A stretch of DNA of 64,000 nt from Cyanidioschyzon merolae (taxonomy: Eukaryota): assembly GCA_000091205.1 (NCBI GenBank), contig AP006501.2; one strand, 5' to 3'. The notes beneath the pieces were generated by a model. That model searched no databases and had not been told where the DNA came from. It saw only the letters and a list, made by a program, of their open reading frames with translations. Below are positions 1,089-23,408 of the stretch, piece after piece. Every line of letters starts with the position of its first letter. Positions within the stretch are counted from its first letter, which is position 1. A program made the translations under genes and the position numbers.

Positions 1089-2309
<1,221 letters not shown>

Positions 2310-3054
2310 CTAGACACTTGGACGAACGCTTCGCGGTCCTCGGAGCTCACAACAGAAGCTCACATGTCTGGAGCGCACACTGCCGTCTCAAAATGCAGCC
2401 GCCGTTGTGGCTGCACTGCACAAGCTTCACACCGGGCATTTGCGGCGACTAGAAAACGTAGAGGCTTTGAGGCAGCAAAGGAAAGAACAGAATATGACCG
2501 CTAACTAGCTATTCGCCAACACATTCTTCCCGCCTCTATCGTAAGGTTTTCAAGTGGGAAAAGGTTTTCGTAGTTCAGAAAGCTTACCTTCTATGCGCAC
2601 CGTCCGGCTAGTGCTTCATGCTACCAGTGGCGGGTGCAGTGGCGCGACCTGATCAGCTCGTTTGCAAAGCAATTTCACCTGGGACTAGCAGTGGGTAGGC
2701 AGCGTATCTCCGTCACCGTGGTCTCGGTGGTCTCCTAGCATAACGCCTCGCGCTGCAGAAGGCAGCACGTCTTTCTACCCAGCTTGCTGGCTCCCAGAGT
2801 GACGATGAATCCCTATTCCGTGTCGGGTGAACGACGCCTCGAGCCGACACCCTCAGCGGCATGGCAGAGCCGTTCTGTCTTCGTGCTGCATTCGCGCTAG
2901 TGGTTTAGGCGCTCCGGAGGGTGCGCACGGTAGGATCGGCGCACGAGAGAATGTACGGAAAATTCCAAAGGCGGGCGTTTTCTCGTAGCTATTTAAAAAA
3001 GAGGCGAGAAAAGGAAGCACTTGAAGTGAGCTGTGAAGTTGCATCAAGACTACT

Positions 3055-6000
3055 TCAAGTATATGCATCGAACTTCATAGATCGTGGTTCTAGAGAAATC
3101 TTACCACAAAATGAACCGCTTCGTTTCCTCTTAGTTTTCATTTTGCGAAACGCTTTTCCTTGGTATGCGGAGAGTTCCGCCCAGGTTTTCTGGGCATGCT
3201 GATCTCTCGGGGTGGGATCAATGAGGGTAACATCCGAAGAAAAGAAACGTTCCTCTTGAATCCTCCGGAAAGGTGTGTTAGCCTGGGGGACTCTCTTCGC
3301 TCTGTCGGATTTTGGGGCAGCCTGTGGGTGAGGATTCAGCTTGGAGCTAGAGGCACCAGCCACGTCGCACTGACTTTTGTCACCAGAGCCTTCTACAATG
3401 ATGCTTCCTGCTGAGTCATCTCTGGGGTCGGACAAAATGGTTTGCGTGGATGACTGACTTTTGCGCCCCATCGCAGACACGGGTTTCGTTACCCGAGGCG
3501 CCATATCAGTAGATTGCGCTAGCATTCCTGGATGGGAATCAATTTGTGATGCACTGAAAGCGCTCCCTATTTGTTCGTTTGAACTGCAAGCGCGCAGTCC
3601 ATCAAATGCGATCCCATTTCCACCGTCTTCCATCGCTGCGCGCGGCTTGTATCTAGGATCCGCATCTTTGCTAGAGTGAAGTCTCTCTGGTTTCCTGAAA
3701 CCTGCGCAAACGTTTGACTTTTGAGCTTTCGTATGGCAATTCTCAGTTAAGGAATGCCAGCTTGAACAAGGAGATCCGTGCTCTCTACGCGTTCGTTTGT
3801 CTAAAGGTTTCCCCGTATCTCTTTTCTGATGATTTTGGATCTGATTTGCACAGACTGGCAAGTCTCCTCCGTCTTGCGCATGAAACCGATATTGCTCTTC
3901 TAAAGAATCCCATTTCATCGTTTTGTTCTGGCCGACCATGAGGCTAGAGTTATGCGGTTTCGACGTATTCGAGGGTCCACACTGGACGTCGTCACTTATA
4001 CATGATTCCGTAACAGCAGCCGGAGCTGAATCCGTGCCTATTAGTACTTTTCGCTGGGAAGTACGCTCAGTGCCTTCGGCAGGGTTCTGTGATTGAGCAA
4101 CGTTCCCTTTCCGAGAGCTCGCATCCCTAGAAGCTCTGCCATTCGCGATTTCACTTCCAGCATGGTTTGTCCGAACCCCGCGATTCCGAGGGGCCTTGCC
4201 CTCACCTTCAGGGATGTGTTGCGTTGCATGTCGTCCTAATGGATTCCTTCCATGGAGCTCTCCATGAAAATATTGCGACCCGCTGGACGCAGCATTCCCT
4301 GTTCTCTGTTCCTGCACTTTCCCGGAAGCAAGATCTTCAGCATGGTAGCTGTTCATTTGCATTTTCATCTCACGCGATTCTAATGATGGACTTATTCCAT
4401 CAGTATTACCATTCGCGAGAGATCCATTGATTTCATGATAATGCCTAGATGGCTCGCATGAGCTGCCTCCAGTGGAATGCACTGATATGTTATCATTTCT
4501 GTCACAATGAGATGCTATCAGCTGATGGTCTGAGGTGTTGGGAAGGGAATCCTGGAATCGTTCCTCTATCCTGCCAGGAGCCGTGCGACTTGCTGATATC
4601 TTTCCAGGCGGAACTGGTAAATTCGGCTCGCTGCTGGTTCCAAAGTCACTCATATTCATACGCGCTGAGCATCTACTGCAGCCGCTGCTCGATGACGACT
4701 CAGAAGTCGACTCCGAAGTGGAGGACGCAACACCTGCCGTCCTCGGTGGCACCTTTCGCGCCTCCGTAGCCTCTAGTGAGCTCGATGAGCTCGATGAGCT
4801 CGACGATGTTGCCGTCGACGCTAGCGCACGCTTCGCTGAGGCCCGATGTGGCGGTTGGACGCTCCCAGCGCGCCTTGTGACTCGCTCGCCGTCGCTCGAT
4901 GACGACTCAGAAGTCGACTCCGAAGTGGAGGACGCAACACCTGCCGTCCTCGGTGGCACCTTTCGCGCCTCCGTAGCCTCTAGTGAGCTCGATGAGCTCG
5001 ATGAGCTCGACGATGTTGCCGTCGACGCTAGCGCACGCTTCGCTGAGGCCCGATGTGGCGGTTGGACGCTCCCAGCGCGCCTTGTGACTCGCTCGCCGTC
5101 GCTCGATGACGACTCAGAAGTCGATTCCGAAGTGGAGGACGCAACACCTGCCGTCCTCGGTGGCACCTTCCGCGCTTCCGTAGCCTCTAGTGAGCTCGAT
5201 GAGCTCGATGAGCTCGACGATGTTGCCGTCGACGCTAGCGCACGCTTCGCTGAGGCCCGATGTGGCGGTTGGACGCTCCCAGCGCGTCTTGTGACTCGCT
5301 CGCCGTCGCTCGACGACGACTCAGAAGTCGACTCCGAAGTGGAGGACGCAACACCTGCCGTCCTCGGTGGCACCTTTCGCGCCTCCGTAGCCTCTAGTGA
5401 GCTCGATGAGCTCGATGAGCTCGACGATGTTGCCGTCGACGCTAGCGCACGCTTCGCTGAGGCCCGATGTGGCGGTTGGACGCTCCCAGCGCGCCTTGTG
5501 ACTCGCTCGCCGTCGCTCGATGACGACTCAGAAGTCGACTCCGAAGTGGAGGACGCAACACCTGCCGTCCTCGGTGGCACCTTTCGCGCTTCCGTAGCCT
5601 CTAGTGAGCTCGATGAGCTCGATGAGCTCGACGATGTTGCCGTCGACGCTAGCGCACGCTTCGCTGAGGCCCGATGTGGCGGTTGGACGCTCCCAGCGCG
5701 CCTTGTGACTCGCTCGCCGTCGCTCGATGACGACTCAGAAGTCGACTCCGAAGTGGAGGACGCAACACCTGCCGTCCTCGGTGGCACCTTTCGCGCCTCC
5801 GTAGCCTCTAGTGAGCTCGATGAGCTCGATGAGCTCGACGATGTTGCCGTCGACGCTAGCGCACGCTTCGCTGAGGCCCGATGTGGCGGTTGGACGCTCC
5901 CAGCGCGCCTTGTGACTCGCTCGCCGTCGCTCGATGACGACTCAGAAGTCGATTCCGAAGTGGAGGACGCAACACCTGCCGTCCTCGGTGGCACCTTTCG

Positions 6001-7527: not shown

Positions 7528-10382
7528 GACTTTCGGAACTATGATATCTCAAAAGGACGAGTATGTGCACGAAGTGCCTTCTGAACAGGTTTATGTACCT
7601 CCTAGGGTGACGTCGACTTGGTATGCACCGTCTACCAACGGCGATGTCGACGCCGACGTCTCCCGGCGACGCCGTCGCATGCTACCGGCGATCATCGGCG
7701 TGGGGCATATTGTTGCAAGACGTGAAGATCGGATGTTCAGCTAGAGCGCCTCTCCTGGAACATGCTCTAGAGGCAAAAGTAGCATTGCACTGCATCCGCC
7801 ACATACGACGTCGTCTATCGGGACGTGATTGGGTGTGGAGGAATACGCATGCGCTTTTCGACTGTAGTCTAAGGTTCGGCGTCTTGTACGAAGCATCCTG
7901 TCTTTCTGCTGACTGCGGGCAGTGAAAGGTAGTCAACGAAATAGAGCTGCAGATCAGGCAAGCACTGGTCAGTTGTTCGTTCGTTCAAGCCTCTATACCC
8001 GTGCCAGACGAAACAGGAACACACTGATCCTCGTTCTGTTACCGTACGTCGATATTTTCCAAACCTTTGTCTAGAGTTACAGTGTAGATATGTGAAGTGG
8101 ATCACCACTGACTTACAGATTCGTACGTATGTAAAGGATTCTCCGTCGCAATTTCGGTCTGGCTCCTTCGACTCCCTTCGGCCGGTACTTTTCCAGTCTA
8201 GGGATTCAAGATGATTCGCAACGCAATCGAACGAAGGCTGCTAGAGTAACAGATATCAGCATCCAACCCATGCGTACAGGCCTGTAAGCTTTTCTTTTGC
8301 AAACGTGTAGCGTGCAGGAATCACGCACCCTTCGTATGTTCGATCTGTCCGTTCCGAGGCGATTCTTGGGCGCGACAAGTTGCGTCGCTGTATTCACGAC
8401 GACGAGAACTCGGCTTTAAGCCCTGACGACCTGCTCGCATACTCACTCCGCAGGTGTACTGAACGGATAAGGTCGAATAATCGAGTATGGTCGAAAGACA
8501 TAATCTCCTCTTTTTTCGCCATCGAAGAAAAAGCATTCGACAGCATCAGCACGATACCTCTCAGGGAGTATGCTCCCAGATGCATGCGTCTCTTCTGTTT
8601 GCTTGGAAAAGTGTCTTGGGATAGGACTTCAGTCATCGCAGCAACAGCTGCCAGAGAAGGGTGCGTCACCGCTTGGGGCAAAGCGATTGCAGACGCAGCG
8701 GTGCAGTCGACTTGCTCCCCAGTCGGGATTTTCCTTCCGGTACCTGTTTTATCGAATGGAATGACGCATTCCAAACAAGCCCCAACTGGAAGGTGCGGAG
8801 TGCGTACGCGTATGCAACGGACAGTGTTCTCGACTAGGGGATCGCCCAGGAGAAGCCCCTGATCGTAAGGCACAGCAACGATGACGAAAACGGATGCAAA
8901 CATCGCGGGGAGCGTATTTCTACAGATTAGCGGCATCTTCGGAGCTGCGAAGCTAGCCTCCATGCGCCAGAGAGCGGCCTTTGTAAGAGACGATGTTGCA
9001 GGCACGTGAGAACGCCTCAGGGCAGCCAAGCGTTGGCGCCGCTGCGCGGGCTTCACCGAGGCTCTCCACTACGGAGGTGCAAGCGGCGAGCGAAGCGCAG
9101 CTCGCAACTCGCGCCTGTCCGTGGTATGCGTGGACATTTACCGGAAGGCGCGAGCTCGGGACATTAGCGTTGCCATCAAATCCTTCGGCGCTCACACCCG
9201 AGCTGGATGGACCGGTGAAACTGGCGCACCTCAGACCGGAAATAAGAGAGAAAAAAGGGGTAGGCGCGGAAAAATCCCACAAATGCTTGTATTGTTAACA
9301 GTTGGATGATTTTCAAACTTTGTACTGCATGCTCGAGTCAGGTTTGCGGACCCGTTCCGTTTGACTCTAAGATGCGCGCGGACTCGGCGGCGGACGCGAA
9401 ATGGTATACATCTTGAGAGCTTGAACAGAAACAATTAGATTCTTAACTTCCTGAGCGTCAAAATTTCCATTCGGGGCGGAATGATACCTCCCGCAGGAAC
9501 GGCTGCTCGAACCTTCCGCTTTTTCGATTGCGGGTTCCCGGTCCCGCACTAGCGTTTCCCGTACTATCTTTTGACTAAGGAAACGCTGCTTGTGGTTCTG
9601 GTGCATGCTCCGCGATGGCTTACTGGGGTTCGCTTTTGGCCCACTGGTTGATGAATTCCCGAACCGAAATGTATTCTATCTAACACATGCTATACGTTAG
9701 AATTGCTGTAGCTGTCCCTAAATGCCTTCTTGCCATGCAATGATGATCAAATTCCTGCGGTAGTCTGGTAAAATCTGCACATGGCCAGTTCGTAAGAACA
9801 TGGTCTTTTGGTCTTCTCACTTGATCAAGACAGCAAAGTCACGTAGGCTTGTGAAAAGCAATCATACGTAAGCGCCTTGATCCATGAATAGGTGACGAAA
9901 ATCTCTCGTTTACAATGAAATGTCGAAAAATCCGGAAGAGATGATGATGTTGTGACGCACAGCTCTGCTATAATTTTGAGAAGCCTCATCTTATGATCAG
10001 CCGATTAACGGTTACACGCTGTTTTGCCGTCCCCTGGACTACGTGCGACTGCCTTGCGCTTATTCGGATTCTTGTTAGTTCAGTGTCATTTATTCTTGGC
10101 GATGGAGGCTAGCGTGGGGTCCAAAGTACCTCCGAAAGAACACTCTGGCTTGACGTGCCTATTACGCGCTCTTCTGAAGCTTGAGTACACCAGCGCTAAC
10201 TTTTCCCTTGTATGCAATCCAGCACGATCGTTGCTGCACAGGAAAGGATCGAATTCGACGACGCGCAGTTCTCATTAGCAATTCGAAGGACTGTGCGGTT
10301 GGGATTTGTCCTGCGATCCGCATATCTATTTCAGGGGCATCTCGCCTGATGCAACACCAAAAGAGCAGCACCTGCTGCTGTG

Positions 10383-13043
10383 TTAAAGATCATGCTCTTC
10401 CTTTTTCGCCTCTCCAACGTCATGGTTTGGCTCGATTTCAAGCGTTGCCCCGCTCAAACTTTCCGCTTGTTTGCTAATGCGCACGCGAACATCTTCTCCG
10501 TGCCGCACTGTTCCCTGCAAAAGGTGGCGAGACAATGGCTCGAGAATTGCCCTCTGGATCACCCTTCTTAGCGGCCGTGCGCCATAGACAGGATCGTATC
10601 CATGTTCAACAAGCCACTGTATTACATCGTCGGAAATGTCTAGGCGGAGATCTGCTCGCTCGCGGAGTAGTTTCTGCAGCGCGTCAAGCTGTACACGAAC
10701 CACATCTTTCAAGATTTCACGTCCAAGTCGATTGAACAAAATGATGTCATCAAGTCGGTTAATGAACTCCGGGGGAAAGAATTGCCGGACCTGAACCATG
10801 ACTTCGTCACGTGCGAAGCTGCTCGGAACACCATCTGGCAGAGAGGCTAAAATATCTGCGCCGATATTACTCGTCATCACAATAATCGTGTTTCGGAAAT
10901 CGACCGTTCTTCCTTGACCATCTGTAAGACGGCCATCGTCTAGAACTTGCAAAAGCACTGTACATACAGCCCGGTGAGCCTTTTCAAATTCGTCGAAAAG
11001 TACCAATTGATAGGGCCTGCGCCTCACCGACTCGGTGAGTTGTCCGCCCTCCTCGTAGCCGACGTAACCGGGTGGTGCACCAATGAGACGAGCGACTGAA
11101 TGCCGTTCAGAGTACTCACTCATGTCCAGGCGACACATTGCATCGGGGCTGTCGAAAAGAAACTCAGCCAGACCTCTACAAAGTTCGGTTTTCCCCACGC
11201 CAGTGGGCCCTAGAAACAGAAATGATCCTATTGGTCGATTGTGAGCGTGAAGCCCTGCTCGCGAAAGACGAATAGCAGACGCGACCGTGCGGACGGCCTC
11301 AGGCTGCCCGACTACCCTCTTCGAGAGGTGATCTTCGAGATGCAGAAGTCTCTCTTTCTCGCTCGACATTAGCGCCTGAACCGGAATTCCTGTTGCTTTC
11401 GAGATCACTTGCAGAATATCTTTCTCAGTCACAGCCTCTGCTACGAGTTTGCCCGACGTTTCTGCCTCATTCTGAGCGACGTTTAACGTAGTCGCGGTCG
11501 TGCCTTGGGCGGAATCCGATAGCAGAATCGTTCGATGCTCAGCGGGAATGCGCGATTCAATCTCTGGTATCGTTTTGTACCGCAGCATCGCCACTTTCTC
11601 CCACTCGCCGCGTCGCTCAGCCATTTCCATCTCATGTAACGCCTTTTCCAACTCCTCTTTTGCTTGTTTCATCGCCTGCAGTTGAGCACGCTCACGTTCC
11701 CATTGGAGAGCCAGTTGTGACCGTTGGTGTTCAAGCTCCCTGACTTCTCCCTCGACTGCGCTCAGCCGCTTTCGCGAGACAGGGTCGCGCTCTAGGCGCA
11801 GTGCTTCTAGCTCGACACGCAGTCGGATCAAGCGGCGATCCAAATCGTCAATAGCTTCAGGTTTGCTCTCTTGCTGCATTTTCAGCCTTGCTGCGGCTTC
11901 ATCAACCAAATCTATTGCCGAGTCAGGTAGTTTCCTCTCTGTCATGTAGCGATGTGCGTTCACTGCCGCAGCAACAAGAGCTCGATCCGCAATACGGACA
12001 CCGTGATGCACTTCATAGCGATTGCGGAGGCCTCGCAAAATGTTGATCGTGTCTTCGACAGAGGGTTCTGCGACGAAAATCGGTTGAAATCTTCTCGCTA
12101 GTGCTGCATCCTTTTCGATATACTTGCGGTATTCAGCGAGGGTTGTCGCACCAACGCAGTGAAGATCGCCCCGGGCAAGCGCAGGCTTCAACAAGTTGCT
12201 CGCATCCAGGCTACCTTCGGCAGCACCAGCACCGACGAGCATATGCAACTCATCAATAAAAAGAATGACGCTTCCTTGGAGCTCCTCGACGTCTCGAAGC
12301 ACACTGCGAAGCCGCTCTTCGAACTCTCCCCGAAACTTTGCCCCCGCAACGAGTGCGCCTAGATCCAGAGCTACTACGCGCTTATTCTTCAAGGACTCGG
12401 GGACGTCACCCCTCGCAATACGCTGCGCCAAACCCTCGACAACAGCCGTCTTGCCGACTCCCGGCTCACCTATAAGGACAGGGTTGTTCTTTGTTCGGCG
12501 CGATAGCACTTGGATTGTTCGGCGAATTTCCTCATCGCGCCCAATCACGGGATCAAGCCGATTCAGCGCAGCCGCGCTAGTAAGGTCTCGCCCGTACTTT
12601 TTCAGTGCTTCTCCAACTGGAACGTTTTCCGGATGCACCCAACCCGGCGGTTGTCCCGTCGCTCCGGTGCGATCGTTCGTGTGCCCCATTCCCGTGGCAA
12701 AACCCCTGATACCAACGACACGTTCCAAGTTCCTGCTGGAAACATTGAACCTGTTTAAAACGGCGCCACGCAAGCTCTCTAGCCTCCTGCACCGTTCCGA
12801 CAACGCCAAGACGCCGGCCTGATGATTGAAAAACATAGTCAGGCGCCTTACAGAATGCCACCTTCGCAACGAACGGGACGCATGCAGCAGAGGCCCTGCA
12901 GGAGCATCCCCAACGAGCGCCCTCGGCCAACTCTCAGACCTGCCAACTGAAGTCCCGAGAAGGGCTGCCCCTCCCCAAGGCGCTTTCGACGAGTTCCTCA
13001 AGGTACGTAGCACTAGAGCCACCATTGTGACAGGAGACGTCAT
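10383..13043 (-). CDS. CLPB: ClpB/Hsp104-family AAA+ disaggregase (Hsp78/ClpB type) with N-terminal organellar-type extension
   Basis: 886 aa with two nucleotide-binding domains (Walker A GEPGVGKT and GPTGVGKT), a coiled-coil middle domain between them, and the C-terminal D2 small domain. The true ATG start was verified. An N-terminal extension of about 120 aa rich in R/S/L precedes the Clp-N region. Confidence 0.9.
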
Positions 13044-14065
13044 AGCGAAGCTGTACGGTCTAACTTGCGAACAAACCGCTCATTCCTTTTCTGGAACAAT
13101 CTCGTGGTGGAGGTCAAAAATTGCGGGGCTCTGCGAGGCGCACTGGCCCCATGCCATATCCTATCTGGGGGGTATTGCAGCGCTCGGCGGATGCACGCTG
13201 ATCTCGAGTGTCAAGCACGGTGCTGAGTTTGTGATGATGCAGGTATTTAGTTTTTGAGCGAGACTCATATTCATCGATACGTACTGTGTGTAATTTCACC
13301 GCGAATGGCGTGTTTCTTGTCGACAACTTCTGCATCAAAGCAAGTCATTGAGCTCGAAACTGGTAGGACTTGTGAGCTGTACGAGCGCCGTAAACATCGA
13401 ACACCTTACTCTGGATTCAGCAGGACACTCCGGTTACGTGAAGCACCTGCTGGAGAGAAGGGTTCAGGGTCTAGTCCGGAAGAGCACGTGGATGCTTTCG
13501 GACGCGATCCAAAGAAGGAGGCAGAGGCCTGGAAGGAGACGGCGCGCGAGCTCCTAGAAACAGATACTGTGCAGGAAGCTATCCACAAGCACATCGAGCG
13601 GGAACATTCGGGAGCGCAAGACGCTCCTGTGGATGTAACGGAAAAGCCGCAGCAGAGCAACTAGTTTTAGAAGGACAACTAGGGGTTAGAAATAGATTTG
13701 GAATTTAGCAGTTAAGAGTTCCGAGCGCCTACGTGGATGCACATAGCTCTCGTTATTCCGCCCGGGACGTATGCTCGCCAGAGCCGTGTCGATGGGAAAA
13801 GGAACACGGAACTGCAAGCTCTGCTCCTGTCTTTGCATGTTTGGAAACTATAGATGTGCAGCCTCGGCACAGAAAGTGCGGCGCTCTTGGCTCACGGTTT
13901 CATACGACGTGTAAGAATTCTCAATCATATTTCTGGAGTGGCACCTTCGACGCTATGAAGCAGGAATTCGTTACATCAATGCCTGCAAGATGATTTTCGA
14001 CACCTTCGAACAAGGGTCCGTAATATAACCAATACCATTATCTAGTCAATTCGCACAAGCCTCAA

Positions 14066-15940
14066 TTGCTCTCCGTTCTTCACGTGCAGTATTCTCAAAT
14101 CACGCGTTCTTCATGTTTTAGTCTTTCTTCTTCAAGGTACTTCGGGGGTTCTGCAATGTGCCCCGATGGATTGGTGAGGAACAACATGAGATGTCGACCT
14201 TTGACGACTTGTTCACAAGGTCATGCCGAAAGTCAGCTGAACCTTCCACGCCAAGTAATAAATTCTGTACGAAAGACATGTCCTTCTCTATTTGCAAATT
14301 ACGAAGAAACCGTATTTTACAACAGCACAATGGTTCCCAGAGAATATGCTCCCAGCGGCTTTCGTCTCTTGTGCTTTAATGGAAACGGGTCTTGGACCCG
14401 GGCCTCTCTCGAAAAGGCATTTGGGCCATCGTCACTGCCATCACCAACGATCGGCAGCATGAACAGGCGAAAGAATTTTTCGACAAGAAGACATCACGCA
14501 GGGGAAAGAATGAAGCTTATGTGATCGGTTCGGCTATTCAAGAGTACCGTGCGGTCTTGGGGCTAGCGAATCTCGCAGAAAAGTCATCAGATATGAAAAA
14601 AAGGTGATGAAATGCGCTGTCCCCTCATCCTGCGCTATTTCTTGTTCTTTGACCGAGAACTCGAAGACAAGGCCGGAAAGGAGCTGGGTGTAGGAAAAAA
14701 AGAAGAGTCGGAGAGACAGAAGGCTGCCCTAATGGGGAAGCGCTTCAAGGTCGTTCCGTTATGCAACATCAAGTCATACTTTGTGACAATCAACTCCAGA
14801 GTCTATTTCGGCATCATGAGGGATATCTATGAGGAGTTCGGCGTAAACAGGGAGGAGTTCAGCGGCGAAAATCGGGACACGTACCGGAAGAGTATCTTCT
14901 ATTTAAAAAGTGTCAAAACGAGCAAGCAAAAGAAATTCACATGGATGGTCGAAAGCGATGAAGTATCCATGTGTGTACACTTTCGGCGCTTGAAGGCGAA
15001 TCGTCCTGTTCCGTCCTCGGCTTCGCCCCTGAGGAAGCATGCAGAAAAGAAAGAGGCGGATCCTGCTACGCAGAAAGTGCAGGATAACGACTTTGTCGTT
15101 GGCGCGGACCCAGGGGACACGAATATAATAGCCATCGCAGTATCGAAGCGTATGGTAGATGTGACTGACGGCAACTTACGTCATAAAGACATGCGTCTCT
15201 TAAAGTTCTCGAGAACGAGATATCACCGAGAATCGGGAATAATGAGTGCGAGGGAAAAAATTTAGGAAGAGAATTCAGGAGTGAAAGAGCGCCTGGAAGC
15301 TATGAGCGAGGTGACTAGCCGAAAAGCGGACTTTCGAGCTTTTCTGAAATTCATGGAAGTTCGCGTTGCTCTTTGGGAGGCGCTGTGGAAAGAGTATACA
15401 AAGCCACGATGGGCTCGTTTGTGAATGAGCTTGTACTGTGTGAAGCAGCGGGCATTCGCCAACTTTTTCAATGAGTTGAGTGCCTTGAAAGAGGACGAGA
15501 GTCAAAGGCACGTAGTAGCATTCGGAGCAGGGTGCTGGGCATCGAAAAAATGGTGTACACCAGCTCCAACGACGAGAACGTACAAGGAGCGTGCACGGCG
15601 TTTTGCCACAATACCAATAGATGAGTTCCAATCGTCCAGTATTCACCATGAGTTGGGATGTACACTTCAGACGGTCGAGATGGATTAGTGTCAGCGGCGC
15701 GGTGACGATATAAAACAGTACGGAGCGCTGACGGAAGAGCAAATGGAAAGGACGGCGAAAGTTCGAGGATTGCTTACGTTAGTGAGTACAACCACCGGGA
15801 GGAAACGTGTGAAGTTTGTGAACAGGGAATTTAACGCCGCCATCAATATAAGGAGATGTGCGGTGATGGAAATAAGACCTCCAGAGTTGACAAGAGTGAA
15901 TTTTTGGGAGAACCTCTCAAATTATACGAGAAGAAATTGA
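14066..15940 (+). pseudogene. TnpB/Fanzor-like RuvC-fold nuclease gene (OrfB-type, IS200/605/607-like), copy A. One continuous reading frame interrupted by five in-frame stop codons.
   Basis: All ORF pieces (14066-14524, 14612-15265, 15425-15688, 15743-15940) lie in the same frame. They are separated only by stops at about 14522 (TGA), 14594 (TGA), 15263 (TAG), 15422 (TGA) and 15689 (TAG). The segments between the stops translate to sensible protein. It has a RuvC-I-like motif FVVGADPGDTNIIAIAV (about 15092-15140), a pre-zinc-finger block RRFATIPIDEFQSSSIHHELGC, and a RuvC-III-like motif KFVNREFNAAINIRR (about 15809-15856). Length (about 620 aa) fits TnpB/Fanzor. Confidence 0.55.
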
Positions 15941-16091
15941 AGCCAGTAGTAAGTGGCCAGTCTAAAAAGGCTGGGAAGCGTCTGCACATCGGCTGGAGAC
16001 GTCTAGCGTAGAGCGCGAGGCGCGCAACTACTGCACCGCTGGTGGCAACGTCTGACTTTTGAGGCGTTCGTTATTGCCAGCGTTGGCTGTG

Positions 16092-16799
16092 ATGGAGGGC
16101 CCGGAGGCAAACCCTTCGTGTTCAGAGGTCTTGACACCCTCAAGCGCACTGCCTAGAGCTGAAGCGACACGCACGGCGCTCGGGTGGTTCTGGTTCCGGG
16201 TGCGGACGTGTTTTGGACAAGGTGACGCTGCGACTCAAAAATTAGAGCAACGATCTTTCGTTCAGCGACTGTTACCTCTGTGCACACTAGTGCTCACTTT
16301 GTGCTTAGCGTTCACGCTTTGGAGGGCTTTGGTCCTGTGGACCTACTCCGAGTCCCCAGTCGTTGTGGTGCTCAGTGGCAGCATGGAGCCAGGTATTCAC
16401 CGCGGGGATATCCTATTTCTTTACAACCGCACCGCAGCTGAAAGGCCTTTACGTGTCGGTGATATGGTTGTTTACAGTTTGCGTGACCGCAGTCTGCCGA
16501 TAATCCATCGCATTATTGAAGTTCATAGACGAGCTTCCGAGAGCATAGGCGATGGCACAAGGGCATCAAACTCTAGTATCCTGGAATATTTCCTTACAAA
16601 AGGGGATAACAACTTCGGTGACGATCGAGGTCTCTACCCTGCTGACAAGAAATGGCTGCTACGCAGTGACGTCATTGGACGGGTTATCTTTACTATCCCG
16701 AAAGTTGGCATGCTGACGATCCTGATGAATACACACAAATGGTTAAAATACGCCCTGATAGGACTGCTGTCACTCACCCTGCTCTTCATATCAGAGTGA
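16092..16799 (+). CDS. SEC11: Signal peptidase complex catalytic subunit SEC11 (S26B peptidase)
   Basis: N-terminal TM anchor followed by VVLSGSMEPGIHRGDILFL (catalytic Ser in SGSMEP), IIHRII (catalytic His) and GDNNFGDDRGLY. Start is set at the first ATG (MEGPEAN), because the ORF-track start is TTG. The true start is uncertain. Confidence 0.85.
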   Translation: MEGPEANPSCSEVLTPSSALPRAEATRTALGWFWFRVRTCFGQGDAATQKLEQRSFVQRLLPLCTLVLTLCLAFTLWRALVLWTYSESPVVVVLSGSMEPGIHRGDILFLYNRTAAERPLRVGDMVVYSLRDRSLPIIHRIIEVHRRASESIGDGTRASNSSILEYFLTKGDNNFGDDRGLYPADKKWLLRSDVIGRVIFTIPKVGMLTILMNTHKWLKYALIGLLSLTLLFISE

Positions 16800-16819: not shown

Positions 16820-17782
16820 TTATGCAACTCCAGGGCCACTGTGTGCTTCAATCGGTGTGAGCGTTATGATGCTCAGTGCATGGATTCTTCTGGAATTAAG
16901 CTCCTCGCTCAAAAGAGCATAAACCAGCTTGTGTCGTTTCACCTCGGGCATGTCTTTGAAGGTATCGCTCACAATTTTGATTGTAAAATGCGTCTCGCCT
17001 CGTCGCTCATGGGCACCTTCGTGACCTCGATGCTTTGCGGAGTCATCACGAATTTCAATCAAGTCTGGTTTCAATACCTGAAGCTTGTTTTCGATGACCT
17101 CCTTCATGGATACCTTGCCATTTGCTGTGGACTGCATAGAGTTTGCCTCACCCATGCCGAGCATTCTGGCCTTTTCTTGCATTGTCCGTAGCATGTTCAG
17201 AAAACCGTTCGTACGGCCTGGAGTCAAACTCACACCCAGACCCGACTCTTTGATAAAGTCAGGCGTCACCGCACATACCTCTTCCACACTGTATCCACTG
17301 AGGCCTCGAATAAGGAAAGCAACAAGCCCCTTGGTAAGCTGTGAGTCAGAGTCACCAATAAACTCAACTTTGCCTTCCTTATCCAAGAAGGCATCTACGT
17401 GCACGACGCTGAGACAGCCCCGTACGCGGTTTGCGAGCACTCTGCGCTCGCGCGGAAACGGTGGCAGGGTCGACGCCATGTGCAAAAGCTGCTGAACCCT
17501 CAGCTTTTGGTCGCCAAGTTTCTTGAAGGCATCCACAAGCCCTTGGAGTTTTTCAGTTGTCCTGCTCTGTCCACTGTGGTTGCCGGGGTCCTCATTCCCA
17601 CAGGCTCGCAAAAGAGCGAGTCTTGCCGTTCGCCGCCTTTGCGCCCGCACAAAGCGCGGCTGAGAGAAACTCGGACGCTCTCCAGAACTCGAACAACCTC
17701 GAAACCTTCTCTGGGTTCGCAGAGCAGTTGGATTACAGGCAAAAGCAGGACCTGAACAGCCGCCACCGCATAAGCGCGCCAT
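16820..17782 (-). CDS. SUFE: SufE-domain protein with C-terminal BolA domain (plant SUFE1-like architecture), N-terminal presequence
   Basis: SufE core spans LPPFPRERRVLANRVRGCLSVVHVDAF through GRTNGFLNMLRTMQEKA, with the conserved Cys in RVRGC. This is followed by a BolA-like domain (HRGHEGAHERRGETHFTIKIVSDTFKDMPEVKRHKLVYALL). The N-terminus is R/S/A-rich, like an organellar targeting peptide. True ATG start. Confidence 0.8.
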   Translation of the reverse strand: MARLCGGGCSGPAFACNPTALRTQRRFRGCSSSGERPSFSQPRFVRAQRRRTARLALLRACGNEDPGNHSGQSRTTEKLQGLVDAFKKLGDQKLRVQQLLHMASTLPPFPRERRVLANRVRGCLSVVHVDAFLDKEGKVEFIGDSDSQLTKGLVAFLIRGLSGYSVEEVCAVTPDFIKESGLGVSLTPGRTNGFLNMLRTMQEKARMLGMGEANSMQSTANGKVSMKEVIENKLQVLKPDLIEIRDDSAKHRGHEGAHERRGETHFTIKIVSDTFKDMPEVKRHKLVYALLSEELNSRRIHALSIITLTPIEAHSGPGVA

Positions 17783-18866: not shown

Positions 18867-20681
18867 TCAAGCTGAGGGTTCAGCGCACAATTCGGAACGA
18901 TTTGCCGAGGCCAAAACTGGCAGCGTTGCATACTGGCTATCAGCCATGCCGATAGCTTCCGCAATACCCCGGAAGCTCGGTTCTTCACCGTTGAGAACCG
19001 TAGCAAGAATTTCTCGCGGTTCTTTGGAAGCGCCGAAACGGAAAAACCCATTCCGTAAAAGCTCCCCTGCAGCCGCCATAGATAACTTGGAATCACGAAA
19101 CAGCCGATTCCATACTTCTGCTGCGAGTATTCTTGCCAAAAGGTAAGAATAGTAGCATCCTCCATAACCAATGATATGCGGCATATATGGGATTCCATCC
19201 CGATACAAGACTTGTTCCAAGCGCCCGTATTCCCGAACGACCTCAGCGATAATTCTTTTGATCTTCGATCGCGCCTCATTACCCCATCCAAAATGATCAT
19301 GGGAGTGGAGTGCCAGGTCCAGCGCCGCGAAAGGCGTCTGCAGAGCTATCTCCGCGACAACGGCCTCCTGTCTCGCCTCTTCAAGTTCTGCCAAAAATTG
19401 ACGTGGCCCATTTGGGGCGAAACGGCGCATCCAAGCAGCATCCCACGCAAAGTTTTCCATGAGATGGCTCGGGATTTCCACAAAATCCATTGGACCGCGA
19501 GTTCCAGAGAGGTGCTGGAAGCGCGTTCTCGACATAATCGTATGTAAAACATGTCCAAGTTCATGCAGGAGAGTCTCCAACTGATAATGTTGCATCCCCG
19601 CTTTTCTTATTATAGGCGGAAAATCACAGACAATGGCAGCGCTCGGCAGCTGACTGGAGCCATCACGTAGTCGACGACTCCCTCGTAACGCGTAGTGCGC
19701 TGCTCCCGGCATCTTGCCATCGCGAGCAAACAAATCAAAAAACACCTCGCCGACGAAGTTCCCGTTCCGCGCGTCCACCAACATAGCGTGCTCTACGCTT
19801 GGATGCCAGATGACTCCCCTGACTTGGTTTTGACGGAGCCGATAAATGCGAATTCCAAACAACTCACAGAGTAAGCCGCTCAACACTTCTAGAACCGAAT
19901 CAACACCAAGATATGGCTGGAGTCGGCGAGCCAGCGAGCTGCATCGTGAGCGTTGAAGGGAAAGGCTATCATGCTGGCGCTTCCTTCGCACCTCATTCAA
20001 CATCGAAGAAACTGAGTTGAGAAACGATACTACGCCATGGGGGTGGCGAAGCAACTTGTCGAGAGCTACGAAGTGAGCATATGATGGGTACGATAGCACC
20101 TGTGCGAGCTCTGATCGCTTATTTAGCAAAGCAGTGAGCGAGTTCCAGGCGATGTTCACATTTGCGGACCCGAAACGCTTCCCGGGGCTTTTCTCCGCAT
20201 CTCGGAATACCGCTGTGACGCGCATGCTCCATTCGAGGATTTCATTCTGTACTGCGGCGACGTGTTTACGCTTTGATGGCGATAAACTTGCTCCTCCGCG
20301 CAAAGCAAAGTCGCGTTGCAACGAGCGGACCAGTGCTTGCTCCTCGCAGGTTACTGCGTCCTGCTTGCGGAGCAGTGCTCCACACAGATTCTCGTCACAG
20401 TTCAGCTCTTGCATGTATTGAGAGAGTTCCCTAAACACACTCTCGCTCGCCTCCACGTGTTCAGGCTCCGCTGATACGTTCCGAGCCAGTTCGGAAGCAT
20501 CGAGTACCTGGCAGAGAGTGTCTGAGAGCTCGTCGAAATCCTGGAGCACGCTGCCTTCGCGGTTAGAGAGGATCTTGTATACCAGATCATTGCACGCTTT
20601 GAGTGTCTGGTGCTTAATTGTTTGCCAGTCTTGAGGCACGTGTAGACCTCTCAAGCCAAACAAGCCTCTGGAGCATAGCAT
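18867..20681 (-). CDS. M3-family zinc metallopeptidase (mitochondrial intermediate peptidase / thimet oligopeptidase-like)
   Basis: HEXXH zinc site in LLHELGHVLH, followed downstream by E in the M3 arrangement. The 604-aa colinear M3A fold has a conserved C-terminal GGxYYSYL-type block (GGCYYSYLLARI). The N-terminus MLCSRGLFGLRGL resembles a mitochondrial presequence. It is somewhat short for M3A, so an upstream exon is possible. Confidence 0.85.
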   Translation of the reverse strand: MLCSRGLFGLRGLHVPQDWQTIKHQTLKACNDLVYKILSNREGSVLQDFDELSDTLCQVLDASELARNVSAEPEHVEASESVFRELSQYMQELNCDENLCGALLRKQDAVTCEEQALVRSLQRDFALRGGASLSPSKRKHVAAVQNEILEWSMRVTAVFRDAEKSPGKRFGSANVNIAWNSLTALLNKRSELAQVLSYPSYAHFVALDKLLRHPHGVVSFLNSVSSMLNEVRRKRQHDSLSLQRSRCSSLARRLQPYLGVDSVLEVLSGLLCELFGIRIYRLRQNQVRGVIWHPSVEHAMLVDARNGNFVGEVFFDLFARDGKMPGAAHYALRGSRRLRDGSSQLPSAAIVCDFPPIIRKAGMQHYQLETLLHELGHVLHTIMSRTRFQHLSGTRGPMDFVEIPSHLMENFAWDAAWMRRFAPNGPRQFLAELEEARQEAVVAEIALQTPFAALDLALHSHDHFGWGNEARSKIKRIIAEVVREYGRLEQVLYRDGIPYMPHIIGYGGCYYSYLLARILAAEVWNRLFRDSKLSMAAAGELLRNGFFRFGASKEPREILATVLNGEEPSFRGIAEAIGMADSQYATLPVLASANRSELCAEPSA

Positions 20682-20960: not shown

Positions 20961-22466
20961 TCAATAAATGTATTCACGCGCAGACGATTCCCAGCCTTTT
21001 TCGACCGGCAGACTGCTGTCGGCCGGTCGAAAAATGTACACTTCGGGTCTGCGAGGCTTCCACACGAAGTTAGATCGCCTCAGCTCTGCGGCCCTCGTCT
21101 CCAGCACCGCAAATCGTCTGATATTAATAGCAGTGCTGAAGTCTCGGTTCACAAACTCCATGCGTTTGTTGCCGCTGGTTGAACTCACTAGTCTAAGGAT
21201 TCCTCGAACTCGAGCGCTCAGTGCCATTTGGTGCTCTGTCAACTCTGCGTGATTTTCTATCGCCGAGCCGCTCCACCGGCTCCTCTCCATCTCGTTCTTC
21301 TGAAGTATACGCACAGTTCATCCAAAGGGTTTTTTTCCTGAAACGAACGTACTTCCTCCCGTCCTTAAGTCAGGAGTTTCCCGGAGGATCGAAAGACTTG
21401 GAAAGTAAAGACAAAATGTGTCCCGATGTGTTACCGTGTGCTGAAAGCTTCAGCGATTCGCCCACTAGAACGATCACTACGTTTCACGATAGAAAACACT
21501 CCTTCGATGAGCTTTAACGACCGAGCGCATGCAGAGATAGAAAGCAGCTCTTCCCCGATTGCATTGGTAAAAGCTCAAACGCAAGAAGAATGGTGAAATA
21601 CCACGTTTTCCAATAGAATGACGTCGCTGGACGTCAGGAGAAAGTCTTCAATGATTCGCCAAAGTGGTCGGTGCTGTTGTATGAGCCTTTTCGATGAGCG
21701 AAACTGAGGCCGCAAAATGAATCTACTGCAGTTAGAACAGATAATGATGTCCTCGTTCTCATCGAGCTCGATCGTACATACAATGCGATTCCTCTCCGCA
21801 AATACTCATACACGCTTCGAGCGTATCGTTTGAAGTAAGTCATATTGACTGAAGAAACAAACCGACGTCCCCGTGCTTCATACCGATCGCGACGTGTCAG
21901 GACTTGTGTTCGAGCGATTCGGCGGAAGATGGCCATGCATGCATTTGGACTTTTTTTGCGACTGGATCTCAGTATTTTGATGACCACATATACAGTCTGG
22001 TGTGAAACAGGAACACCAGTAGTAAATCGTATCGACGCCTTTTGCTTTCCCTAGAGTGATCAACGGATCGTCTTCTAGCGTTGAGAGCAATCATGCTTTA
22101 AGAATATCGATTTTGGCACGAAATGCTTTCAATCTTTTCTTTCAGTGTTCCACCACCATCTGTGTTCTCCGCTACGAATGAGCTGAAGGTAAATGCAGTC
22201 CTCGTTGCAATTTTCAGTAAATGATATATCTTGTAAGCAATTCGTCTGTGATCTATGCGGTACATTGATCTGTAATATCCATCTCCATCTAGACAACACA
22301 GCGGAGCCGAAACAGAATTGAGTTGAAAGCCGCTCGCGTACGGCACTGAGCGCCGCGCACGCAATTTCGGGATTCCTTGCGCGTTGCAGACCGCACTCTG
22401 CAGTTGAACGCGTTGAGGCCAGTGGACGCATTCATAGTGTCGAGTGCGTGGACGTATTGTTTGCAT
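20961..22466 (-). pseudogene. TnpB/Fanzor-like RuvC nuclease gene, copy B, degenerate (frameshifts, catalytic-site substitutions)
   Basis: RuvC-III-like MEFVNRDFSTAINIRR sits at about 21122-21160 (-). A homolog of the copy A pre-zinc-finger block (YEARGRRFVSSVNMTYFKRY versus YKERARRFATIPIDEFQSS) is in ORF 21634-21987. A possible RuvC-I remnant FVAENTDGGGT is in ORF 22098-22466. The pieces lie in different frames. Confidence 0.45.
20997..21034. other. Perfect 13-bp-stem inverted repeat (hairpin) with 12-nt loop inside the 3' end of Fanzor-like copy B
   Basis: Read directly from the sequence: tttttcgaccggc (20997-21009), loop agactgctgtcg, then gccggtcgaaaaa (21022-21034). The second arm is the exact reverse complement of the first. 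Confidence 0.9.
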
Positions 22467-22538: not shown

Positions 22539-23408
22539 ATGGAGAATCTTAGTTTTAGGGAAATTCGAGAGAAGAACGCTTCCAGAGGTGTTCCTTCCCG
22601 TACAGTTCGGTGCACAACGAGGTGGACCGAGGCGCCTCAGGTGAGACGGCAGAGTTTTTCAACGCCTGAAGCCGTCTTTGCTTCAGAAAAGACACGCTTT
22701 TGTGGTGAGCGTCAACTACAGCGCCGCCGCAGGACGCAGCTGTGTGCGTGGGGACTCGTCGAGGGCTCCGCTGTGATTGGAATTCTCGGAATCCTTGTAA
22801 CGCTGAATATTGTTTCCCGAATTTCGGACTCTGCCCGAGGGACGCGCCTCTGGTCTCGGGAGCAAAGAGGCCTCTTTGTTCGCCGCAGGCCACCACCACG
22901 TGAACGCTGCACAAAGTGTGGTGGGTTTGGCATCGTTCGGTGCTCTTTGTGCCGTGGTTCAGGTTTTGTGCTCTACGAGAAGAAGCTCCAGCATAGTGAC
23001 CCGTGCCCGCTATGCACTGCTCGGCGATACATACGTTGCGGCATGTGTCATGGCAGTGGACGGCGGAAACTAGTCAGAAGGCATGACCCTGCGCTGAGCA
23101 GCATTCGCCTCAGCGATCCGACTTCACTGTACAATGCGTTTAGGGCGTGGAGAGAAGAGTTTGTGCGCCGCGGATCGCTTTCAGTAGGCTTTCTGAATCA
23201 CGAGGGCCTCTTGAACCGTGCGTTCCGAGTAGCTTCGGCATTCGCTGACTCGCTCAAAAGCGGTATTGGTCGCAGCTGGTGCACAGTCCAAGAACGTGTT
23301 CGTGCGGGAATTGAGCAACATTTAGAAGCCCGCAAAAAAGCTCGAATGAGTCGAATTGCACGAGCACGCAGTTTCCTTGAAGAGCGTTTACAAAAAGAGT
23401 CACAATGA
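22539..23408 (+). CDS. DnaJ-type zinc-finger (4x CxxCxGxG-like) protein with predicted transmembrane helix; resembles plastid BSD2/LQY1-type small zinc-finger proteins
   Basis: A hydrophobic helix LCAWGLVEGSAVIGILGILVTLNIV is followed by CTKCGGFG, CSLCRGSG, CPLCTARR and CGMCHGSG. Two CxxCxGxG repeats are canonical and two are degenerate. Confidence 0.6.
   Translation: MENLSFREIREKNASRGVPSRTVRCTTRWTEAPQVRRQSFSTPEAVFASEKTRFCGERQLQRRRRTQLCAWGLVEGSAVIGILGILVTLNIVSRISDSARGTRLWSREQRGLFVRRRPPPRERCTKCGGFGIVRCSLCRGSGFVLYEKKLQHSDPCPLCTARRYIRCGMCHGSGRRKLVRRHDPALSSIRLSDPTSLYNAFRAWREEFVRRGSLSVGFLNHEGLLNRAFRVASAFADSLKSGIGRSWCTVQERVRAGIEQHLEARKKARMSRIARARSFLEERLQKESQ

Follow-up and report, generated by a model that had tools for sequence, protein, structure and literature searches.

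A decayed copy of the Fanzor1 element CMe-1A in the nuclear genome of Cyanidioschyzon merolae

Identity of the locus

Does the window, a 64,000-nucleotide stretch of Cyanidioschyzon merolae DNA, hold an intact gene for a TnpB/Fanzor-type nuclease, or the remains of one? A preliminary description had read positions 14066 to 15940 as an intact-looking gene of this kind (copy A), and had implied that its family was new. Comparison with published elements placed the locus in a known family. On the plus strand, positions 14396-16062 matched positions 1486-3163 of the CMe-1A consensus (PMC3627910, Additional file 2) with 83.7% identity over 1680 bp (blastn), and the identity was 84.4% in a global alignment. 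The CMe-1 protein matched copy A with 74% identity (tblastn), and positions 14393-16071 corresponded to positions 846-2684 of a 2687-position DNA profile built from 20 full-length copies (nhmmer). The match to an intact relative, P0003 (55% identity, E = 4e-168, tblastn), excluded chance by far. The extent of the copy is as follows.

14393-16071, plus strand: copy A as a whole, equivalent to about 1483-3169 of the 3169 consensus positions, 5'-truncated and decayed (nhmmer, blastn, global alignment)

CMe-1A is a Fanzor1 element of C. merolae described by Bao and Jurka (2013, Mob DNA 4:12; PMC3627910), with a consensus of 3,169 bp. About 150 copies are present in this alga, which are about 3 kb long and about 80% identical to the consensus; they have no TIRs, and some are still intact (PMC3627910). 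About 80 loci that we reconstructed independently agreed with the 2013 paper on copy identity, length and the absence of TIRs at the element ends. The similarity of copy A to the consensus was on par with that of the other copies (about 80%). The element consists of a single ORF and carries no transposase gene. A T-rich run lies at its 5' junction and may be either target (TAM-like) or element sequence. We conclude, with a probability of roughly 0.95, that 14393-16071 is a dead copy of CMe-1A, a ~3.2-kb, single-ORF, TIR-less Fanzor1 element of C. merolae. Copy A has the family, the host and the 3' terminus in common with the published element, but lacks consensus positions 1-1485 and differs in its frameshifts, its stops and an Asp-to-Glu substitution at RuvC-III. 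The family is not new; it was published in 2013, in the paper that named Fanzor (PMC3627910).

Copy A is intergenic, with ClpB and SEC11 as its neighbours on a chromosome of C. merolae 10D. The proteins encoded by ClpB, SEC11, SufE, MIP and CMS133C in the window match BAM82758-82762 of C. merolae 10D exactly. The relic itself is unannotated and its longest ORF is missing from the protein collection; because the accessions of the neighbours are consecutive, there is no room for an annotated gene at this position. The first ~110 codons of the described frame (14066-14392) had been counted as part of the gene. They lie outside the element, in an unrelated dispersed repeat (about 13935-14395) that abuts copy A upstream and has a conserved frame of its own; stop-masked translations of this repeat had no match in Pfam. 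Further relics of the family were found elsewhere in the window.

20975-21321, minus strand: relic B, C-terminal fragment of a more divergent member, profile positions 2250-2602 (nhmmer E = 1.4e-42)
47869-48217, minus strand: relic C, a paralogue of relic B, consensus interval 2252-2603 (nhmmer E = 1.9e-39)
41432-43152, minus strand: relic D, very divergent, with many stops and an internal loss (tblastn; six-frame hmmsearch with the family profile)

Relic B is 55-59% identical to the family (tblastn) and forms one end of a 1.2-kb repeat (21094-22267). Relic C likewise forms one end of a repeat (47991-49158), which is 69% identical to the relic B repeat over 1188 bp. In relic D, pieces of the N-terminal part and of the RuvC half are still recognisable, at 26-43% amino-acid identity.

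Fold, catalytic motifs and zinc-finger region

The Fanzor1 assignment of copy A is based on family-level profiles together with the published consensus. Its translation had no match in Pfam (including the OrfB models that had been suggested for this search), in NCBIfam or in PDB, and a shallow profile of close relatives found nothing in PDB; the relationship was visible by family-level profiles only. A deeper profile of 75 diverse relatives, searched against PDB with hmmsearch, found only PpFz1 (4.8e-23), SpuFz1 (7.4e-16) and GtFz1 (1.5e-10), with the motifs aligned. PF07282, the Cas12f1-like TNB domain, was found in 32 of the 75 relatives. Structure prediction followed by a Foldseek search, another check suggested at the outset, was run on the intact relative P0055 and pointed to a Fanzor1 fold. 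The AlphaFold2 model had a pLDDT of 87.2 and a pTM of 0.85, with a predicted REC/WED N-terminal half and RuvC/NUC C-terminal half. Its best seven Foldseek matches in PDB were all Fanzor1 (E about 1e-17 to 1e-16, TM up to 0.74), with some 680-800 columns aligned, and Cas12, Fanzor2 and TnpB came next with E-values of at least 5e-5. These independent lines, namely the PDB profile, PF07282, the predicted fold and the CMe-1A DNA match, support the original call of copy A as a RuvC nuclease gene of the TnpB/Fanzor type, carried by a mobile element within a eukaryotic genome.

The order of the three motifs named in the preliminary description, GADPGDT, IDEFQSSSIHHELGC (from 15617 onward) and NREFNAAINI, was confirmed in one frame, and each aligned with the corresponding block of the solved Fanzor1s in the profile comparison. 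The catalytic positions are listed below.

15107-15109, plus strand: RuvC-I catalytic Asp codon, in the DPG motif of GADPGDT (15101-15121)
15623-15625, plus strand: alternative (rearranged) RuvC-II Glu codon, in IDEFQSS
15827-15829, plus strand: RuvC-III position, Glu (GAA) in place of the family Asp, in NREFNAAINI (15821-15850)

The RuvC-I Asp column (D421 in the P0055 model) was invariant in 74-75 diverse relatives, and D, P and G were all invariant or nearly so. Fanzors have DPG at RuvC-I, whereas TnpBs have D-hydrophobic-G (PMC10711439); the DPG of copy A aligned with the DPG(R/K) of PpFz1 and GtFz1 and with the DPN of SpuFz1. In Fanzors the canonical RuvC-II glutamate has been replaced by an inert residue, Pro or Gly (PMC10530073), and an alternative conserved glutamate tens of residues downstream completes the triad (PMC10530073, PMC10711439). 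In sequence, the family shows both the replacement and the downstream glutamate. The canonical position is Gly in copy A (VVAFGAG), and in the family it is G or S within AYG[SA], with G559 invariant in P0055 numbering. The alternative Glu (E592 of P0055), 33 residues past the canonical position, is invariant in the family and aligned with the DEFRTS, DEYKTS and PEHYTS blocks of the solved Fanzor1s. At RuvC-III the Asp is invariant in the family alignment A6 (D658), and the CMe-1 consensus reads NRDFNAAINI. The Glu reported for copy A is real; the family has the Asp and copy A has lost it.

A zinc finger of the CCCC type (CxxC...CxxC) has been described in the stretch from the alternative Glu to RuvC-III (PMC3627910, PMC10432273, PMC10711439), in 'many' but not all TnpBs and Fanzors (PMC10711439). 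It is treated as a hallmark of TnpB/Fanzor. In the CMe-1 family it is absent throughout: the pattern E-x6-CxxC occurred in 0 of 192 proteins, most of which had 0-2 Cys in this segment, while both CxxC pairs were present in the controls PpFz1, SpuFz1 and GtFz1. In both copy A and the CMe-1 consensus, this segment contains 2 Cys in a non-canonical arrangement (HHELGC-x9-C). The zinc-finger segment of copy A had been thought shortened relative to copies B and C. It differs in length from the consensus by only a single codon, lost through a 3-nt deletion at 15796; what it lacks are the cysteines, and these are missing family-wide.

The solved Fanzor1s, SpuFz1 (8GKH), PpFz1 (9CF0) and GtFz1 (9CER), are the closest known systems in predicted fold, which they appear to share along its full length. 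They are similar to the CMe-1 family in size (about 600-750 aa) and in the GLL.C and NRD motifs. Both groups have lost the canonical RuvC-II Glu and carry the alternative one in a DE[FY]+T motif. However, the sequence identity between them is only 12-16%, all three solved proteins have the zinc finger, and they are characterised nucleases, whereas the CMe-1 family is known here from its sequence and predicted fold. Fanzor2 (ApmFz2, 9B0L) is also a eukaryotic/viral TnpB homologue with a rearranged glutamate, but it is IS607-like, smaller and nearer to TnpB. Its structural match was weak (E = 1.1e-3, TM 0.22), and we rejected it as the identity of the element.

TnpB (IS200/IS605, IS607; ISDra2 TnpB, 8H1J) shares with CMe-1 the RNase H-like RuvC, the split D-E-D triad and the RD.NAA.NI block, and its elements are likewise TIR-less with a sharply defined right end. 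It differs from CMe-1 in its D-hydrophobic-G and canonical Glu (PMC10711439), in its length of about 400 aa, in its CCCC zinc finger and in its TnpA transposase partner; the D-hydrophobic-G, the canonical Glu and TnpA are all absent from CMe-1A and copy A. The missing direct Pfam OrfB/TnpB match and the missing zinc finger might suggest that copy A is no Fanzor at all, being either a prokaryotic TnpB/IS605-type gene (recently transferred, or a contaminant) or an RNase H-like protein of no relation to Fanzor whose motifs agree by chance. The chance of this is negligible. The DPG motif and the rearranged type of glutamate are not those of TnpB, and the family profile matched only Fanzor1 in PDB. 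The Fanzor1 structures aligned full-length, including the large N-terminal half, with a Foldseek E-value about 14 orders of magnitude better than that of TnpB (1.9e-17 vs 2.7e-3). The C. merolae genes that flank copy A are nuclear. The profile-to-PDB and fold searches, the CMe-1A DNA match and these flanking genes led us to reject prokaryotic TnpB, contamination and chance motifs, and to retain the Fanzor1 element CMe-1A as the identity of the locus.

Reading frames and decay of copy A

Comparison with the consensus and the family proteins divided copy A into three frame segments, as follows.

14392-14601, plus strand: first frame segment, CMe-1 residues 193-262 (GLSRKGIWAI...SSDMKK), stop-free, outside the frame described earlier; 74% identity over 70 aa in frame +1 (tblastn), with P0003 in agreement
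14596, plus strand: frameshift 1, one extra nucleotide compared with the consensus (global alignment; frame switch also in tblastn)
14597-15904, plus strand: main frame segment, CMe-1 residues ~261-697, the entire RuvC/NUC half; 74% identity over 437 aa (tblastn, CMe-1), and 55% identity to P0003
15263-15265, plus strand: premature stop TAG within the homologous frame
15422-15424, plus strand: premature stop TGA within the homologous frame
15686-15688, plus strand: premature stop TAG, in the segment that is the zinc finger of other Fanzors
15900, plus strand: frameshift 2, one nucleotide missing compared with the consensus (global alignment; frame switch also in tblastn)
15898-16011, plus strand: C-terminal tail in the third frame, EFLGEPLKLYEKKLKPVVSGQSKKAGKRLHIGWRRLA followed by the natural stop TAG (16009-16011); similar to the P0004 tail and the CMe-1 consensus

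A single frame does span 14066-15940, as described, but family homology within it is confined to 14597-15904. The claim of a frame intact over 1.9 kb is incorrect, because the homology switches frame at 14596 and again at 15900. Residues 193-262 lie in a different frame from the main segment as a result of the +1 insertion at 14596, and the C-terminal 37 residues with the natural stop lie in the third frame, after the 15900 deletion. Among the smaller lesions, the global alignment showed a +1 and a -1 indel that compensate each other (14691/14701) and the loss of 3 nt in frame (15796), all in the main segment; the tail has an in-frame 6-nt deletion (15919). The frame 14066-15940 contains six stops (TGA 14522, TAG 14564, TGA 14594, TAG 15263, TGA 15422 and TAG 15686) rather than the five counted before, and half of them fall where this frame differs from that of the family. 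The net damage in the family frame thus amounts to 2 net frameshifts and 3 premature stops. In addition, about 1,485 bp are missing from the 5' end of the element, and with them the first 193 codons, the presumed promoter and the 5' module. The complete CMe-1A structure, a 635-bp TE-N2_CMe-like module at the 5' end and an intact 734-codon ORF, is not present. Far from looking intact, the copy is 5'-truncated, frameshifted, stop-ridden and unannotated.

The substitution rates of copy A relative to the consensus were 0.165, 0.117 and 0.181 at the first, second and third codon positions. Among full-length copies, third positions differed about twice as often as second positions. The skew in copy A is small but not zero, indicating that part of its divergence predates inactivation. 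Copy A has probably lost the ability to make protein and appears to evolve neutrally. Could it instead still be a functional gene, whose expression relies on RNA editing, programmed frameshifting, readthrough or a variant code? In favour of this, the main frame runs for 436 codons and is broken by just three stops, and the DPG and alternative-Glu catalytic positions are retained. Even so, such a gene is extremely improbable. Both TGA and TAG interrupt the frame, in addition to the two net frameshifts, and its neighbours in the host are long, uninterrupted standard-code ORFs that correspond exactly to annotated proteins. The loss of the first 193 codons and of all upstream sequence, the near-even substitutions over codon positions, the substituted RuvC-III Asp, and the lack of annotation, with the longest ORF missing from the protein collection, likewise argue against it and for a dead copy.

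The intact ancestor of copy A encoded a Fanzor1-type protein of about 734 aa. By analogy with characterised Fanzor1 and TnpB proteins, the family protein may bind RNA transcribed across the right end of the element, with the adjoining flank serving as guide, and may cut DNA beside a short target-adjacent motif. Such cleavage might help the element to persist or spread. Copy A has since lost the first ~1,485 bp and gained its frameshifts, its stops and the RuvC-III Glu, which probably left it protein-dead and neutral.

The right end and the wider family

Downstream of the natural stop, copy A extends to the end of the element.

16012-16071, plus strand: 3' non-coding tail and element right end, with a local terminal hairpin (ACGTCT...AGGCGT)

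This boundary is sharp. About 50 copies lose similarity directly after ...GGCGTT(T/C)GT (16063-16071 in the window), and local hairpins are present at the right ends of copies. In characterised TnpB and Fanzor systems the guide RNA comes from the right end and overlaps the 3' end of the ORF (PMC10530073, PMC10711439); by analogy, the scaffold of a Fanzor guide RNA would be expected to have its end in 16012-16071. None of the folding, covariation, z-score, synonymous-site and Rfam tests gave positive support for a guide RNA at the 3' end. RNAalifold found essentially no consensus RNA structure among 33 right ends, and the copies resemble one another too closely, and are too rich in G/U, for a column-pair covariation scan to be informative. 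Stability z-scores were mixed (+0.7 to -4.3). In full-length copies, synonymous and third-codon sites showed no raised conservation at the 3' end of the ORF, and Rfam had no match at gathering or permissive thresholds. The papers searched contained no report of CMe-1 activity.

A protein-dead copy might still contribute its right end (about 15850-16071 plus the flank), transcribed as a guide RNA acting in trans for the Fanzor1 of an intact copy. At its 3' end copy A stops no more than 3 nt short of the consensus terminus and the terminal hairpin is preserved, the characterised guide RNAs come from this end (PMC10530073, PMC10711439), and some CMe-1A copies are intact (PMC3627910). However, RNA-level constraint was not detected at the 3' end of the family, nor was there an Rfam family match. 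The region has no known promoter and has acquired indels of its own in copy A (-2 at 16033 and -2 at 16061), and activity has been demonstrated for no CMe-1 protein. We give this trans-acting role only a slim chance and regard the right end as part of the same dead copy, which is no longer programmable or mobile.

For the locus itself the finding carries little weight: the family, catalogued in 2013, has about 150 copies in this well-annotated model red alga, and copy A is a decayed one of them. It does show that Fanzor relics can be flagged correctly from motifs in raw sequence where standard Pfam searches fail. Any wider reach lies only at the family level, where the CMe-1/DUF8286 lineage has retained the catalytic signature and the fold of Fanzors without the zinc finger. 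The relatives carry PF26935 (DUF8286), an uninformative DUF, in precomputed annotation, and the DUF8286 clade comprises, at 50% identity, about 2,000 representatives, nearly all on metagenomic contigs. It is possible, though we hold this tentatively and consider it rather doubtful, that the CMe-1 lineage belongs to a large Fanzor1-like DUF8286 clade that lost the CCCC zinc finger. If so, surveys requiring the CxxC...CxxC motif would miss this clade, and RNA-guided nuclease activity in its intact members would mean that the zinc finger is dispensable.

Assignment of copy A to Fanzor1

Copy A (14393-16071, +) is a 5'-truncated decayed copy of the Fanzor1 element CMe-1A. As a pseudogenised transposon copy it is unremarkable, and its family is already known, published in 2013. 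The preliminary description had recognised the family from the raw sequence, and correctly, since profile, fold model and published consensus agreed on Fanzor1. The copy A translation had no match in Pfam, NCBIfam or the PDB. In a large protein database, 61 intact unnamed proteins of 400-750 aa emerged as strong relatives (best E 2e-186), some with the weak precomputed domain PF26935 (DUF8286). An exhaustive profile search gave 1,973 family representatives at the 50% identity level. A profile built from 75 diverse full-length members matched exactly three PDB proteins, all solved Fanzor1 nucleases, from Parasitella parasitica (4.8e-23), Spizellomyces punctatus (7.4e-16) and Guillardia theta (1.5e-10). 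The three motifs singled out earlier lined up with the matching Fanzor blocks, and 32 of the 75 members matched the Pfam Cas12f1-like TNB domain (formerly OrfB_Zn_ribbon). The suggested fold check was run on a complete member, P0055 (AlphaFold2; pLDDT 87.2, pTM 0.85). The best seven Foldseek matches in the PDB were Fanzor1 structures, aligned over the full length (E ~1e-17 to 1e-16, TM up to 0.74), and Cas12 variants, Fanzor2 and TnpB ranked below them at E >= 5e-5.

CMe-1A of C. merolae was described in the paper that named the Fanzors (Bao and Jurka 2013; PMC3627910). It has ~150 copies, each ~80% identical to the consensus and some still intact. The consensus is 3,169 bp long, with one 734-codon ORF and no TIRs, and its 5' 635 bp are shared with the repeat TE-N2_CMe; target and TSDs could not be determined (PMC3627910). 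Window 14396-16062 corresponded to consensus 1486-3163 with 83.7% identity over 1,680 bp, and the encoded protein, CMe-1, matched copy A at 74%. The same overall picture as published came independently from ~80 related loci in environmental assemblies, with a conserved core of ~2.7 kb, a sharp 3' boundary, no inverted termini and 75-85% pairwise identity between copies.

Locus and decay of copy A

The following genes were exact C. merolae 10D matches.

Host genes around copy A (accession set BAM82758-BAM82762)
10383-13043, ClpB
16092-16799, SEC11 (BAM82759)
16820-17782, SufE
18867-20681, mitochondrial intermediate peptidase
22539-23408, CMS133C

These matches, on a 1.28-Mb chromosome, confirmed the host as C. 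merolae. Because the accessions are consecutive, no annotated gene lies between ClpB and SEC11; the longest ORF of copy A was absent from the protein collection. At its 3' end (~16071), copy A stops no more than 3 nt short of the consensus terminus. Only 21 bp separate this end from the downstream SEC11 ATG (16092; BAM82759), which places the element within the immediate 5' region of that gene.

Translated in a single frame, 14066-15940 gave 624 codons with six internal stops and a terminal TGA, rather than the five stops reported previously. All three reported motifs were present, GADPGDT at 15101-15121, IDEFQSSSIHHELGC from 15617 and NREFNAAINI at 15821-15850. An intact relative aligned to 14597-15904 far beyond chance (E = 4e-168). 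Over this part the proposed single frame is homologous to the family, but both ends of the remaining coding sequence lie in other frames. Family residues ~193-262 (14392-14601) are displaced by the +1 insertion at 14596, and the final 37 residues and natural family stop (TAG, 16009-16011) occupy a third frame, past the 1-nt deletion at 15900.

Lesions of copy A
Consensus 1-1485, absent from copy A: 5' module, upstream region and 193 codons
14596, +1 insertion, net frameshift against the consensus
15900, -1 deletion, net frameshift against the consensus
14691/14701, compensated +1/-1 indel pair against the consensus
In-frame deletions of 3 nt and 6 nt against the consensus
15263, 15422 and 15686, premature stops, all three in frames homologous to the family
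RuvC-III, Asp to Glu

Substitution rates against the consensus were nearly even across codon positions (0.165, 0.117, 0.181), which fits most of the divergence having built up without selection. Full-length copies differed from one another ~2x as often at third as at second positions, in accord with the view of Bao and Jurka that the protein was long maintained (PMC3627910).

Repeats in the window and modules of the family

Repeats and family remnants in the window
20975-21321 (-), relic B, end of repeat 20975-22267
47869-48217 (-), relic C, end of repeat 47869-49158
~41432-43152 (-), relic D, a very divergent, stop-ridden copy
2482-2960 (-), solo copy of the 635-bp 5' module of CMe-1A, 74% identical to consensus 133-636
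13935-14395 (+), 8492-8619 (+), 32005-33292 (-) and 50363-51650 (-), dispersed repeat

No family similarity at all was found 5' of ~14393. The stretch 14066-14392, previously taken as part of the gene, falls in a different dispersed repeat (~13935-14395) unrelated to Fanzor. The repeat's own conserved frame (RPLTTCSQ..HAES.L.L.RQ.I.S.RK...REYAP) coincides there with the frame read earlier. Sequence of ~13935-14395 recurs at 8492-8619, 32780-32927 and 51138-51285. The repeat had neither a long ORF nor a Pfam match, and was likewise present in related loci at positions beyond the Fanzor element. Over 1,288 bp, the copies at 32005-33292 and 50363-51650 shared 99.1% identity and so suggest that the repeat was duplicated recently or that the element is active. 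The fragments directly upstream of copy A and at ~8.5 kb are older.

Relics B and C are likely the copies B and C of the preliminary description. They cover an identical consensus interval, each forming one end of a 1.2-kb repeat; the two repeats are 69% identical, which indicates old paralogous decayed copies, probably of an old divergent subfamily. In the other ~950 bp of these repeats, neither DNA nor protein profiles recognised Fanzor sequence, barring faint motifs such as TRAY. The solo module is presumably a TE-N2_CMe member. At 28606-29109 (+), a weak match to the N-terminal family profile (positions 7-169; independent E = 5e-4) could mark a further very old relic or could be due to chance.

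All related-locus copies aligned shared the core from ATCGCGCTCGGTGAGCGCACC onward (boundary ~consensus position 645). Upstream of it, the copies split into three or more recurring groups with no sequence relationship to each other, and one group alone corresponds to the TE-N2_CMe-like module already published. Differing 5' modules seem to be combined with the Fanzor core. Full CMe-1A copies (L005, L022, L026, L031, L040, L053, L055, L058, L062, L065, L071, L079, L084, L085) gave 14 distinct 5' junctions. In ~11 of these, a T-rich run (TTTTTY) ended the unique flank 2-4 nt before the GATGACAAAACG of the element. This run could reflect a preference for a target or TAM-like sequence, part of the element that went unrecognised, or a poly(A) tail belonging to the 5' module and seen on the opposite strand. 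Intact relatives also carried 1-4 tandem ~75-bp (25-aa) units (KHEEKKEADPATQEVQDNDFVV) directly N-terminal of the RuvC-I DPG (locus L001, 7146-7450; equivalents in L005, L006 and L007; proteins P0003, P0004 and P0008). The unit is single in copy A and in the published consensus, and its number varies inside the ORF with the frame kept.

Catalytic signature, right-end RNA and zinc finger

The family has DPG at RuvC-I, Gly/Ser at the canonical RuvC-II Glu position and, 33 residues after it, an alternative Glu that is invariant; the RuvC-III Asp lies in RD.NAA.NI. Features including DPG and the rearranged Glu set Fanzors apart from most TnpBs (PMC10711439, PMC10530073), and in one Fanzor the rearranged glutamate has been shown to be indispensable (PMC10530073). 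By analogy, intact CMe-1 would bind RNA made from the element's right end and would cut DNA matching the adjoining guide, beside a short motif.

Our tests could not support the RNA part of this mechanism. RNAalifold found no consensus structure at family right ends, column-pair statistics there were uninformative, stability z-scores ranged from +0.7 to -4.3, and Rfam gave no match. Among family copies, no extra synonymous-site conservation was seen near the ORF 3' end, and the non-coding tail was less conserved than the coding sequence. Local hairpins recurred in two places, directly past the stop and at the extreme end of the element; their registers differed between subfamilies, so they carry no claim.

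The CCCC zinc finger has been called strictly conserved in Fanzor/TnpB (PMC3627910) and is common to SpuFz1 and ISDra2 TnpB (PMC10432273). Both cysteine pairs were found in all three solved Fanzor1 controls (P. parasitica, S. punctatus, G. theta), whereas E-x6-CxxC occurred in none of 192 family proteins. Most kept only the GLLWC Cys; the CMe-1 clade lacks this one too (GLLALVS) and has HHELGC-x9-C. The segment in copy A, described earlier as a shortened zinc finger, is only one codon off the consensus and the ligand cysteines are lost family-wide, so that reading was mistaken. The absence of the finger is the one real departure of the family from Fanzor/TnpB. We found no literature discussion of it in the CMe-1 lineage; one study ascribes a zinc finger to 'many' Fanzors (PMC10711439), so a Fanzor lacking it may not be unprecedented. 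The putative zinc-finger-less Fanzor1 clade is the sole lead with wider reach, and it concerns the intact relatives elsewhere, not copy A.
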